Shown here: positions 1,534 to 20,267 of the stretch, one piece after another
Layout: every line of letters starts with the position of its first letter
Position numbering within the stretch: the first letter of the stretch is position 1
IMG/VR virus record: IMGVR_UViG_3300025679_000005
Direction: 5' to 3' (one strand)
DNA length: 64,000 nt
Source of the DNA: a virus
Lineage: Duplodnaviria > Caudoviricetes
Notes under the pieces: model-generated
Told to the model about the DNA's origin: nothing
The model's input: only the letters and a program-made list of their open reading frames with translations
The model's database searches: none
Position numbers and translations under genes: made by a program

Positions 1534-1862
1534 GTCTCAGTACTGGAACCCCTGAGCGGGTGTTGTTGGAAGGGCTATGGACCAAGTACGTGCTCACAAA
1601 GGTCTCGTCTCAGTACTGGAACCCCTGAGCGGGTGTTGTTGGGGGTTCGCGTGCGGTAAATCCCCTAATGTCCGAGAAGTCTCAGTACTGGAACCCCTGA
1701 GCGGGTGTTGTTGGCCCTGTTACGTCGAGCAGCTCCACCTCGTCGAACAGCAGTCTCAGTACTGGAACCCCTGAGCGGGTGTTGTTGGCAAGGACCGACA
1801 CGCAAACGAGATCGATTCCGTACCCAGTCTCAGTACTGGAACCCCTGAGCGGGTGTTGTTGG
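1534..1862 (-). CRISPR. CRISPR array A: 5 identical 36-nt repeats (CCAACAACACCCGCTCAGGGGTTCCAGTACTGAGAC on minus strand), 4 spacers of 36-38 nt
   Basis: Repeats start at 1534, 1607, 1679, 1753, 1827; orientation inferred from the 3' GAC end and co-orientation with the adjacent RuvC-like gene. Confidence 0.97.
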
Positions 1863-1865
1863 AGG

Positions 1866-2402
1866 TCATTGAGCGGCCTCATCACATCCAGTAGTTACAC
1901 CGGACTTTGCGAGCGCCTCGCCAGTCCGTCGACAAATCTCCTTCGAGGCTCCAAAATCCCGATCGTAAGTGCGCCCACAATTAGGACAAGCAAGGATCAG
2001 ACCGTCAAGCTTTCCAGTGGGTTTTATGCAATGGGGGCACACCTGCGACGTTTTGCGAGCGGATACCGCAAAAACCTTGGCACCCGACCGCTCGCAGATC
2101 TGTTTGAGCAGGTAGGGGGCAGAAACATCTCGGTTCTGACGTTTACGCCTAGAACTCTCCGAGGCCGTATCAAGAGCACGCATCTGTGTGCTCTTGAGGT
2201 CCTCTAGGCCGATAGCCACATACATGGCCGCCAGTTTTTTGGCGGCCTTACTGAGAATGTCCAAACGAATATTCTCAATCCGTCGGCGAGCCTTGGCGAT
2301 TTGTTTTTCGGTCAGGTGCTCGTAAGCCACCCAAGAGGCTTCCTCTGTAGTGAGTACTCCCAGTTCGGCCAGATGCCTTCGGTATTGATGCCGATTTCTC
2401 AC
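1866..2402 (-). CDS. 178-aa TnpB/Cas12f-like C-terminal fragment (bridge helix, RuvC-II, Zn finger, RuvC-III)
   Basis: RRRIENIRLDILSKAAKKL, IGLEDLK, TSQVCPHC, CPNCGRTYDRD; no RuvC-I, WED or REC region in frame. Confidence 0.8.
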   Translation of the reverse strand: MRNRHQYRRHLAELGVLTTEEASWVAYEHLTEKQIAKARRRIENIRLDILSKAAKKLAAMYVAIGLEDLKSTQMRALDTASESSRRKRQNRDVSAPYLLKQICERSGAKVFAVSARKTSQVCPHCIKPTGKLDGLILACPNCGRTYDRDFGASKEICRRTGEALAKSGVTTGCDEAAQ

Positions 2403-2951: not shown

Positions 2952-3051
2952 GCATTCCTCTAACGGCTGGGTTTCGGATAGCTTTAGGGCTATGGGACAA
3001 ATACACCAAAGCGACGGTCCTTGCCCAGGTTATGTTGGTGTAGACCCTTAG

Positions 3052-6141: not shown

Positions 6142-6177
6142 GTCTCAGCGTACTGAGCAATAAAAAAGCTTTGTGGG
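6142..6177 (-). repeat. degenerate CasPhi repeat copy
   Basis: gtctcagcgtactgagcaat (20 nt exact), then diverges. Confidence 0.9.
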
Positions 6178-7377: not shown

Positions 7378-8148
7378 GTCTCAGCGTACTGAGCAATCAA
7401 AAGGCTTCGCAGGCTGGGTCTGTCGCGAGCTGGACCAATACGGTGACGTGCTTGTCTCAGCGAACTGAGCAATCAAAAGGTTTCGCAGGATCCAGAGCTA
7501 CCAGGCGCTACAACGGAAGTGGCATCAGTCTCAGCGTACTGAGCAATCAAAAGGTTTCGCAGGAGGCGGTAGTCCTTGATGCTATCGTCGGCAAAGTCTC
7601 GTCTCAGCGTACTGAGCAATCAAAAGGTTTCGCAGGGTCGGGGCGGCGGGGGCAGATTCATCAGACCAAGTACGTCTCAGCGTACTGAGCAATCAAAAGG
7701 TTTCGCAGGAGTGGCCCATAGACCTGGTTCCCTTGGGCGTCCCTCTTGTCTCAGCGTACTGAGCAATCAAAAGGTTTCGCAGGGCCAGGGGCCGGCGGGC
7801 CGTTGTACTGGCCCGGACGAGTCTCAGCGTACTGAGCAATCAAAAGGTTTCGCAGGTTCCTTAGTGGGACTCTTAGAGGATCCTATAAGTAAGAGTCTCA
7901 GCGTACTGAGCAATCAAAAGGTTTCGCAGGGTCGGGTGTTGGAGTCGATGAGGTTGGCTTAGCGTACGTCTCAGCGTACTGAGCAATCAAAAGGTTTCGC
8001 AGGCCCCGACTCCACGGGATCATGTTGGGGATCGATCCTGTCTCAGCGTACTGAGCAATCAAAAGGTTTCGCAGGGCGTCGTGTTCATCGATCACAACTA
8101 CAGGGATCCCCTGTCTCAGCGTACTGAGCAATCAAAAGGTTTCGCAGG
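7378..8148 (-). CRISPR. CRISPR array B (CasPhi): 11 repeats of 36 nt (CCTGCGAAACCTTTTGATTGCTCAGTACGCTGAGAC on minus strand), 10 spacers of 36-40 nt
   Basis: Repeats start at 7378, 7454, 7528, 7601, 7674, 7748, 7821, 7895, 7968, 8040, 8113; the two variant repeats (7378, 7454) mark the trailer end. Confidence 0.99.
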
Positions 8149-8239
8149 TCGCACGTCAGAAACAGTGAATTTTCAAAGACCTACCGAATGCTTTGCGAGC
8201 GGTTCGGTAAATTAGAGATCAGCAGGGGGTATTACACCG

Positions 8240-18054: not shown

Positions 18055-18400
18055 CTAGGGCGACCCATTTGGGAAAGCGGCCCCTTGCTTGAAAGACGGA
18101 CAATTCGTCGAATTTGTACACGCCTTCGAAGCCGATGATGAAGGCACAGGCTTCAGCTTCTTCGCAGTTTAGGAGGTCTGCCGCCTCTGGGGGCGTTGGA
18201 TAGTAGTTGGCCGTTCGACCTGAGAGCATGCTTTCAACTGCCCCAAGGGGACAGCACGTGTGCCCCTTCTTTTTGAAGATAGCGCCGATGGCGTCCTGGA
18301 CCCCCATCTTCTGGACGTTGATTGCGTAAGTCACCGAATCCGCGATCTTGGAGGCCGCTCGGCGGTAGCGTTGTTCAGGGGTCTCAATTGTCATGTTCAT
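18017..18400 (-). CDS. paralog family P2 protein
   Basis: CCPLGAV..AFIIGFEG..LGEAYRKRF, similar to 21650-21967. Confidence 0.7.
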   Translation of the reverse strand: MNMTIETPEQRYRRAASKIADSVTYAINVQKMGVQDAIGAIFKKKGHTCCPLGAVESMLSGRTANYYPTPPEAADLLNCEEAEACAFIIGFEGVYKFDELSVFQARGRFPKWVALGEAYRKRFVATP

Positions 18401-18825
18401 TGTCCAGGGTTAGAGGCCACTGGCTTCGACTTGTAGGGGTTTGCGATACCGGACGTGTCTTCCTCTAGTTCGATGTGATCAGGCGTCACAGCGTGGCTAG
18501 TGGGGGTAACCACTGGTTTTACACCAGCGACAGGTCGTTGCTGAACCACCACCGGCTTGACGCCCGCGTCAAGGAGAGTCTCGACGGCTACGACCTTAGG
18601 GGCGTCATTGACTTGAGCCGCCTGCCAGCGCTTCACCACTGCCATCGCCTCGGCATCAACCGTCGGTACCGGCATTACAATGACAGTGGACGAGGCCGTT
18701 GGCGCCGTTACGGCTACAGGTTTCGGCTGGCTAGAGCTGCCGAACATGTAGCCACCCACGAAAATGGCGATGGCGAACACGAAGGTGAGAACGATATAGG
18801 GGGCGTCTTGGCGAGTCATGATCAA
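18397..18825 (-). CDS. single-TM membrane protein, Pro/Thr/Val-rich; matched by array-C spacer 5
   Basis: N-terminal TM helix; class-2 promoter upstream; protospacer at 18649-18687. Confidence 0.75.
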   Translation of the reverse strand: MIMTRQDAPYIVLTFVFAIAIFVGGYMFGSSSQPKPVAVTAPTASSTVIVMPVPTVDAEAMAVVKRWQAAQVNDAPKVVAVETLLDAGVKPVVVQQRPVAGVKPVVTPTSHAVTPDHIELEEDTSGIANPYKSKPVASNPGQ

Positions 18826-18874
18826 TAGAACGGATCCATAACCCAGAAGTTAAGGGCTACCTGGTTTCCGGCCC

Positions 18875-19351
18875 GTGACCACTTGAAAGGGTTTCGTCTC
18901 CCTCTCTGACCTCAGCGCCCTCCCACGAGTCACGTTCCGCGTGGAGTGACCACTTGAAAGGGTTTCGTCTCCCTCTCTGACCAAAGCTAAGTCCACCAAG
19001 GACCCCAAGAACATGTTCGTGACCACTTGAAAGGGTTTCGTCTCCCTCTCTGACGAGCGAATGCGTCCCCCTGCCTCTCGTGAGCAATTCACGTGACCAC
19101 TTGAAAGGGTTTCGTCTCCCTCTCTGACTCTCTTAGGGATTTGATCCCTGATTCGCGATTTTGCGTGACCACTTGAAAGGGTTTCGTCTCCCTCTCTGAC
19201 CTCGGCATCAACCGTCGGTACCGGCATTACAATGACAGTAGTGACCACTTGAAAGGGTTTCGTCTCCCTCTCTGACACCAAGGTTTCGGTTCTCAGCTAC
19301 CCACCTGGAGCCCTCGTGACCACTTGAAAGGGTTTCGTCTCCCTCTCTGAC
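18875..19351. CRISPR. orphan CRISPR array C: 7 identical 36-nt repeats (GTGACCACTTGAAAGGGTTTCGTCTCCCTCTCTGAC on plus strand), 6 spacers of 35-40 nt
   Basis: Repeats start at 18875, 18946, 19019, 19093, 19165, 19241, 19316; internal hairpin GAAAGGG/CCCTCTC; orientation unresolved. Confidence 0.98.
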
Positions 19352-19460
19352 GCGGTCCGTCAGGTTAGCGGCAATGAGGGTGTGGGAGGCTACGTAGTAT
19401 ACAGCCCCGTTGGTGGCTTTGACTTCGAAGGCTCTGAGGGCGGGGACGGTCGGCATGGTC

Positions 19461-20267
19461 TCAGTCTACACCAAAAACCTGGTAGTTCAGGTAGAACCCC
19501 TCGTAGGTGTAGAACTTCAGCAACCGCTCGACACGGATCGTCCGGTCATTGTCCGTGAGTACGTAGCAATCGTCTTCGTGGACTGCCACGATGACTACGG
19601 CACTGCTCCGACGCCTGTCCTTGGTCCGCCAGCGCTGGCCCTTCGCTGGCCCTGGGATCTGACCGCCAATAGGAGCGGATATGAAAATGATCTCGGGATC
19701 ACAATCGACTTTTGGTTCAGGCGGCTTGGGGTCCGGAACGATCCTTGATCCCGAGGTCGGTTCAGATCCCCCAGCACTCTTAGGGTATGCCTCATGGTAC
19801 AGTTCACCTAGGCCGATCGTCAAACGATCCATCAGGTGAGAAGCTTTGAGTTTCGCGCTATCTACGAGGATTTGCAGTATCGCGCTATCTACGAGGATTT
19901 GCAGTATCATACGTGCTCCAACGGTCAATTTCTGATGGGTCTTAAGGGTCGGCCAACGTCTTTCGACGCAGTACCGGCAGAGGCAGCAGCTGCCGTCGCA
20001 TTCGACCTTCCCACAAGTCTCACAGGGGTCAGGCGGGATCGGACAGTCTTCGCAAAAGACAATGCAGCCAGCCAATGTCGAGGCTGTTCTTGATGCCCAA
20101 GCATTCGGGACAGGATTCGTTTTCGTTGTCGAAGGTGTATAGGCCGCCGTCACAGCGATAAACGCCGTCTGGGAGGGGCACAGGCTCGGTGTAACCCCAT
20201 CCGACGTAGTGAGCAGCCCCAGTGCACCGAAGGGTAACGTAGGGCTGGGAGCTGTAGTCACAGCCAT
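19461..20267 (-). CDS. hypothetical Cys-rich/KOW-like protein (true start probably downstream, near 20091)
   Basis: ORF track; contains a 27-bp in-frame tandem duplication. Confidence 0.5.
   Translation of the reverse strand: MAVTTAPSPTLPFGALGLLTTSDGVTPSLCPSQTAFIAVTAAYTPSTTKTNPVPNAWASRTASTLAGCIVFCEDCPIPPDPCETCGKVECDGSCCLCRYCVERRWPTLKTHQKLTVGARMILQILVDSAILQILVDSAKLKASHLMDRLTIGLGELYHEAYPKSAGGSEPTSGSRIVPDPKPPEPKVDCDPEIIFISAPIGGQIPGPAKGQRWRTKDRRRSSAVVIVAVHEDDCYVLTDNDRTIRVERLLKFYTYEGFYLNYQVFGVD

Follow-up and report, generated by a model that had tools for sequence, protein, structure and literature searches.

The locus analyzed here raises the question of why a phage should carry a CRISPR spacer that matches one of its own genes, lying right beside the array. 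In cells, a spacer of this kind is usually taken for a lethal accident; on viral genomes, self-matching spacers have received hardly any study. The source is a huge peat phage of about 465 kb, and the window, that is, the whole stretch of 64,000 nt that was analyzed, is part of its genome. The case is a clean one: guide and target, and apparently the effector as well, are all in the phage, which is still present at about 95x in the peat community. It gives a way to ask how a virus avoids harm from its own RNA-guided system, whether by a missing TAM, by escape in the seed, or by an effector that only binds. Our answer, given with slightly less than even confidence, is that the guide is most likely a tolerated self-capture; a gene switch is not proven. 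The features on which the argument turns are the following.

18875 to 19351, minus strand: array C, in which 6 spacers separate 7 identical repeats of 36 nt; it is probably a satellite of the TnpB-like, type V-like system of the phage.
19201 to 19240, minus strand: spacer 5 when counted on the plus strand, or the second spacer after the leader when read on the minus strand; its one mismatch to the target is at 19240.
18648 to 18688, minus strand: the protospacer, inside the neighboring gene, codons 44 to 58, peptide STVIVMPVPTVDAEA.
18397 to 18819, minus strand: the target gene, with its ATG at 18819, coding for 140 aa.
18826 to 18854, minus strand: a second recurrent upstream motif, CTTAAC...GATCCGTTCTA and then ATG, directly before the start of the target gene and between the array and the gene (families D7, D8, and D10).

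Spacer 5 is identical to 18649-18687 over 39 nt, and only its terminal base differs, as the original prediction held. If the last repeat base is counted, the identity reaches 40 nt (19200-19239 and 18648-18687). The sole difference is an A at 19240 against a G at 18688, the third base of Ser codon 44, which is TCC in the gene and TCT in the spacer and therefore synonymous. When spacer 5 is read as a minus-strand guide, this mismatch falls on guide position 1, and the 5' flank of the target on the minus strand ends in ...CCTCGTC. Within the window, blastn-short gave the match an E value of 7e-18, and no self-match was obtained for any other spacer of arrays A, B, and C. Spacer 5 thus matches a site outside the array in the same genome at 39 of 40 nt, with both copies at full depth. 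The target flanks and the distance of about 550 bp in the original prediction were also correct, the exact distance being 552 nt. Under a uniform model, the chance of such a spacing in a 465-kb genome is about 0.24%, so either the capture was local or the pairing is functional. Searches of phages, plasmids, IMG/VR, and GTDB genomes revealed no other protospacer for the spacers of array C or of the related L030 array from which a TAM could be derived; the spacer-5 core also had no match in the JGI metagenomes.

The target had been described as a membrane-protein gene at 18397-18825. The membrane assignment stands, since the protein has one N-terminal hydrophobic helix (residues 9-27, with a mean Kyte-Doolittle value of 2.3 over 19 residues), but the start had to be moved and the ORF is 18397-18819, in agreement with the gene calling on the public record. 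Among 5.8 billion proteins the target protein matched only itself, and it had no Pfam or PHROG match. Similarly, the 4-kb region had no match among the INPHARED phages, and two neighboring proteins had no relative in IMG/VR. The genes flanking array C are all on the minus strand.

The repeats of array C run from 18875-18910 to 19316-19351, and the spacers of 35, 37, 38, 36, 40, and 39 nt are all unique. These are the properties of a CRISPR array, i.e., at least three near-identical repeats of 23-55 nt with unique spacers of similar length. The repeat is unrelated to those of the two other arrays of the window, which are listed here with the adjoining nuclease gene and the leader of array C.

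1534 to 1862, minus strand: array A, 5 repeats.
7378 to 8148, minus strand: array B, 11 repeats, adjoining the CasPhi/Cas12j gene.
8240 to 10570, minus strand: the CasPhi/Cas12j gene, matching PDB 7lys with E = 2e-135.
19352 to 19456, minus strand: the leader of array C, 105 nt; the ATG at its beginning is the start of an 82-aa ORF, probably spurious, that runs into the repeats.

The 82-aa ORF is annotated on the record, and it crosses the repeats in two frames and is probably not real. When array C is removed in silico, the ATG at 19456 opens a 40-codon ORF whose stop lies just before the upstream motif of the next gene (19352-19456 plus 18857-18874, minus strand). Array C may therefore sit inside a former small gene. 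Other fragments of CRISPR loci were also seen in the window. Beside array A, a 178-aa ORF (1866-2402, minus strand) corresponds only to the C-terminal part of a TnpB/Cas12-like protein (RuvC-II, zinc ribbon, and RuvC-III); its similarity to CasPhi (E = 2e-4) and to P0084, a TnpB-like protein treated below (E = 2e-3), is weak, and it looks like a remnant effector. The CasPhi repeat recurs in part (its hairpin half), singly or in pairs, at 6142, 7031, 10609-10666 (minus strand), 14435, 14475, and 61371. The array A repeat is likewise found in partial copies, at 933 and 2424-2428, and several of all these copies stand right after a GGTGTA motif.

One reading in the original prediction was regulation through a host effector. 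A host effector finds no support, because the 22-nt core of the repeat is absent from IMG/VR, from 185,579 species genomes (GTDB), and from the JGI metagenomes, and the full repeat also had no match in IMG/VR. No host system using this repeat was found in these three collections. Unlike viral mini-arrays in inter-virus conflict, array C thus has no repeats identical to a host CRISPR among the 185,579 species genomes. The same repeat appears instead beside a TnpB-like effector of the phage. In the Logan assembly of peat run X1, two contigs with a depth of about 95 carry perfect copies of the array C repeat joined to flanks that are absent from the window, and these flanks together with the repeat have 10 of 13 index words in common with the anti-repeat scaffold described for a 649-aa TnpB-like locus in the same genome. 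On the basis of contig ends and this index look-up, the repeat of array C is very probably identical to that of the TnpB-like locus, which would lie about 105-107 kb before the window start. Array C thus appears to be no orphan and to belong to a small TnpB-type nuclease of the phage itself. Within the window there was no anti-repeat for this repeat, the best match (17/19) being at chance level. Homology searches with the effector of a related phage contig (L012) and with a 14-sequence profile returned no protein from the 465-kb contig among the family matches, and P0084, a 648-aa representative of the family, sits on a different contig from the window phage.

Relatives of this system were sought by scanning IMG/VR for three copies of the terminal 8-mer of the array C repeat at CRISPR spacing. 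True arrays came from two kinds of phage contig, L010/L021 and L012. Most GTGACCAC triple matches were coding tandem repeats, and a scan for a pair of 11-mers gave one locus, L002, which is not CRISPR. In L010/L021 and L012, a 36-nt repeat ending in GTGGTCAC directly follows an ORF of 587 or 602 aa and runs in its direction. The same ending in the reading direction is found in the array C repeat on the minus strand, while the repeats of two further loci, L028 and L030, end differently. The 587- and 602-aa ORFs, which are 39% identical to each other, contain HTH_OrfB_IS605, OrfB_IS605, and Cas12f1-like TNB domains by Pfam. The same three domains are present in the effectors of L028 and L030 by precomputed Pfam, and both of these have arrays. 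In all four foreign loci the array is preceded by an anti-repeat, which lies on the strand of the effector at -160 to -125 nt. In a large protein database the family comprises about 29 proteins of 480-660 aa, including P0003, P0084, and P0092. The loci, each followed by the anti-repeat and then a CRISPR array where DNA is available, are as follows.

L010, 1496 to 3259: family effector locus.
L012, 8688 to 10496, minus strand: family effector locus.
L028, 3001 to 4878: family effector locus.
L030, 3001 to 4893: family effector locus.

By these features, the family is a predicted tracrRNA-type, TnpB-derived phage system. It is similar to ISDra2 TnpB with E = 4e-23 and to LaTranC with E = 2e-5. 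In RuvC-I the family has an invariant Glu, in RuvC-II the canonical Glu is replaced by an invariant Arg, and in RuvC-III there is Glu or Asp, whereas the nearest array-less TnpBs retain D/E/D. No other invariant acidic residue was seen in the 14-sequence family alignment. In the TldR study, proteins with fewer than two intact residues of the DED triad were counted as inactive, and it was also noted that relocated catalytic residues can mimic inactivation (10.1101/2023.11.30.569447). We lean toward the view that DNA cutting has been lost in this array-linked family. The arrays of the family appear to turn over, since those of L010 (3263-3589) and L021 (6-257) have three spacers in common and L010 has one extra; as far as the two contigs can be compared, this difference is direct evidence of spacer gain or loss in the family.

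A leader motif, CGCTCGCAAAG, lies 42-43 nt before the first repeat in the CasPhi arrays A and B and in the TnpB-type arrays of L010, L012, L028, and L030, which are unrelated phage contigs; with up to 3 mismatches allowed, neither side of array C has it. The 11-mer CGCTCGCAAA(G/C) was observed at this distance in the window at 1905-1915 and 8191-8201 (minus strand), and at L010:3209-3219, L012:8744-8754 (minus strand), L028:4807-4817, and L030:4822-4832; it also occurs at L025:3251-3261 and L029:4558-4568. This 11-mer looks like a shared leader element, at which a single kind of spacer-integration machinery might perhaps dock. Array C also has flanks unlike those of the mini-array at the TnpB-like locus, so that a simple duplication of that locus is not supported.

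The reading direction of array C decides what its guides can pair with, and two elements upstream of the array on the minus strand bear on it.

19467 to 19472, minus strand: the promoter-like motif GGTGTA, which faces array C and lies 115 nt upstream of its first repeat on that strand.
19477 to 19492, minus strand: a terminator-like hairpin with a T-run, just upstream of GGTGTA, marking the start of a separate transcription unit.

GGTGTA occurs 58 times in the window against 31 expected. It precedes about 25 start codons by 9-12 nt, e.g., at 13132, 14408, 21982, and 44096 on the minus strand and at 3037, 38180, and 56845 on the plus strand, and CasPhi arrays, mini-arrays, and solitary repeats also follow it directly (978, 1901, 8238, 14474, 14516). 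Because it recurs before these genes and directly before these repeats, GGTGTA is regarded as promoter-like, and it behaves as a putative phage promoter giving very short leaders. Upstream of array C on the plus strand there is neither a GGTGTA nor a sigma-70-like site. We hold with good confidence that array C is read on the minus strand, since GGTGTA and the hairpin occur on that strand only, arrays A and B and every flanking gene share it, and GTGGTCAC is the 3' end of the repeat in L010 and L012 when read in the direction of the effector, which for array C corresponds to the minus strand. A guide read in this direction would be sense to the mRNA of the membrane protein and could not pair with it; it would pair only with the template DNA strand at codons 44-58. 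The site lies 131-170 nt into the ORF.

These results are consistent with a tolerated self-capture along the following lines. Array C would be a genuine CRISPR array serving the phage's own TnpB-derived, tracrRNA-dependent type V-like system, whose effector, anti-repeat RNA, and 3-repeat mini-array would lie about 105 kb away, and a GGTGTA promoter of the phage would drive transcription of the array from the minus strand. The spacer-5 guide, as the sense of the membrane-protein mRNA, would then pair only with template DNA within the ORF. The spacer would have been captured from the phage lineage's own DNA beside the array and would persist because it does little harm: guide position 1, beside the place where a TAM would lie, is mismatched by a synonymous change that resembles an escape mutation, the target flank may be without the TAM that the effector needs, and binding by the effector may not lead to cutting. 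Of all this, the match, its two contexts at full depth, and the layout of the family in other phages are shown directly, the repeat identity with the distant locus and the minus-strand reading are strongly indicated, and the origin of the spacer and the cause of its tolerance are what we infer.

Local capture is favored because DNA beside active arrays is a known hotspot of spacer capture. Protospacer hotspots around active arrays have been described for the type I-E system of E. coli and for Pyrococcus furiosus, where they were ascribed to nicks made during spacer integration (PMC5737086, PMC10011333). In addition, spacer 5 sits in an ordinary six-spacer array, whereas the presumed regulatory guides of the phage are separate, promoter-driven mini-arrays. 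This precedent and the ordinary position of the spacer, second from the leader, favor a self-derived and tolerated spacer. Some points run counter to it. Array C is without the CGCTCGCAAAG motif that every other array examined has, and the documented hotspots come from cellular type I systems and not from phage arrays, so the parallel holds by analogy. The mismatch at the end could also be a ragged spacer boundary instead of an escape mutation. The original prediction had offered a tolerated self-spacer together with shielded phage DNA. We keep the former as the favored reading, but shielding is not needed for it, as any one of three things would suffice: a missing TAM, the mismatch at position 1, or an effector that only binds.

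It has also to be considered whether spacer 5 is a programmed regulator, in which case a cleavage-deficient TnpB-like effector on the template strand would block transcription of the membrane-protein gene, as a switch or a CreTA-like addiction module coupled to the adjoining array. The altered active site of the related family, E/R/E-or-D against D/E/D in the nearest array-less TnpBs, would count as inactive by the TldR criterion. The guide pairs with the template strand, the one on which dCas12a roadblocks are effective. Guide and target lie side by side, in keeping with co-inheritance, and a small membrane protein is a common kind of toxin. However, the phage's own effector was not among the matches of the family from which the inactivation is read, and relocated residues may give a spurious impression of it. 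Known regulatory guides are aimed at promoters, while this one pairs 131 nt into the ORF, and it belongs to an ordinary array. Moreover, there was no self-match in two related phages, L010 (searched against its whole 9-kb record) and L012 (its array against the 121.5-kb record). We therefore consider programmed self-regulation unlikely, and the specific proposal that a non-cutting TnpB-derived effector of the phage silences the phage's own neighboring membrane-protein gene through a spacer of a satellite array is a shade less likely again. If true, it would be a self-regulation or addiction switch in a virus that is programmed by a CRISPR array, with a full-length spacer and not a degenerate guide.

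Similarly improbable, in our view, is that the spacer serves as a weapon against kin, having been taken from a near-identical competitor with TCT at codon 44 and excluding it from the co-infected cell, while the resident copy would be immune through a difference at position 1 or in the TAM. Most spacers of virus-borne arrays do target relatives of the carrier (PMC11656645), and a single synonymous difference at the TAM-proximal end is what an immune allele would show. Close kin may also exist. In the soil metagenome X3 (2017, another study), two short contigs with a depth of 2 cover 18390-18505 and 18653-18803; one is identical (151 nt), and the other departs from the window at 4 positions and diverges at its end. 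On these short contigs, the same phage or a close relative is present outside the source sample. However, the X3 fragment has the resident base at 18688, and neither the T allele at codon 44 nor another variant of the target site was seen in the contigs. A position-1 mismatch would be weak protection against a 39-nt match, the proximity of 552 nt to the array (about 0.24% by chance) is left unexplained, and the target gene has no detectable homologue among the 5.8 billion proteins.

The strand logic of the original prediction was right: read on the plus strand, the guide is antisense, and read on the minus strand, it is sense and has DNA as its only possible target. It would take the plus-strand reading, by a host system, for the RNA to be antisense to the mRNA of the membrane protein; the two would then pair completely over 39 nt. 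CasPhi repeats end in GAC, and the plus-strand repeat of array C ends likewise. However, the plus strand is without either kind of promoter upstream, the homologous arrays are read in the opposite direction, the repeat is in no host genome searched, and such action on RNA is not known for TnpB or Cas12-type effectors. Since the evidence favors the minus strand, antisense RNA regulation by spacer 5 is unlikely, and the complete host-driven version of it is quite improbable.

Least credible of all, and close to negligible, is that an artefact of assembly or a chimera duplicated the 40 nt, for although the genome is a metagenome assembly whose contig graph breaks at the duplicate, an independent assembly has each unique junction context at full depth, two public contigs are identical base for base, and the array copy is bounded exactly by repeats. 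In the Logan contigs of X1, the gene context is represented by one contig ending at 18677 (depth 93) and another spanning 18648-18841 (depth 88), and the repeat-5/spacer-5 junction at 19173-19229 by a contig with a depth of 100. Both contexts thus occur at the full depth of the phage, about 95x. The X1 contigs end at the points where a k=31 graph should be broken by a duplicate of 40 nt, and because a true duplicate of this length has that effect on such a graph, a chimera or misassembly behind the spacer-target match is very unlikely. The ENA contig k141_731965 (464,302 bp) is identical to the window over 8397-28819. The misassembly that the original prediction had allowed for is thereby answered at both sites. 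We also rejected the idea that a crossover at the spacer had captured a host array, as the gene copy has phage flanks on both sides and the array copy has repeats on both sides.

The locus can be compared with several known systems. Virus-borne arrays in inter-virus conflict, such as the SPV1/SPV2 mini-arrays (PMC11656645), are similar in being viral arrays without adaptation genes and in having a spacer that matches the carrier's own kind. However, their repeats copy host arrays and the carrier is without the target, whereas here the repeat is the phage's own, as far as the contig ends tell. In those systems the spacer targets a related virus and not the carrier; here the carrier itself has the 39/40 match, and no variant allele was seen.

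TldR (10.1101/2023.11.30.569447) and CreTA/CreR are alike in that a guide matches a gene of the same genome beside the guide locus and in that the effector is possibly non-cutting. They differ in using one fixed or degenerate guide aimed at a promoter. The target of spacer 5 lies 131-170 nt inside the ORF, which sets it apart from TldR guides. CreTA/CreR is characterized by degenerate repeats and partial complementarity to a promoter, whereas array C is a normal array with perfect repeats and a full-length spacer that matches a coding region at 39 of 40 nt.

The cellular self-targeting spacers of E. coli type I-E and of Pyrococcus furiosus (PMC5737086) resemble spacer 5 in coming from the own genome in the neighborhood of the array and in differing at the target end that is most important for recognition. 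Here, however, the carrier is a phage with no known adaptation genes, the presumed effector is a phage-encoded TnpB-like protein, and array C is without the leader motif of its sister arrays.

With respect to the effector, Cas12r of the Thermus Lalka phages (bioRxiv 10.64898/2026.04.20.719267), CasPhi/Cas12j, and TranC are similar as small effectors of RuvC fold on a phage with its own array, and Cas12r of the Thermus phages and TranC are the nearest described examples to the family found here. In its relatives L010, L012, L028, and L030, the effector, anti-repeat, and array lie in one direction. The family nevertheless differs from these described effectors in having E/R/E-or-D in place of D/E/D, and it is far closer to ISDra2 TnpB than to LaTranC. 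Array C differs further as a presumed satellite about 105 kb from its effector. Taken together, the locus brings to light a TnpB family that is linked to arrays and altered at its RuvC site, and it suggests that an apparently orphan array can be the remote satellite of a compact TnpB-type system.
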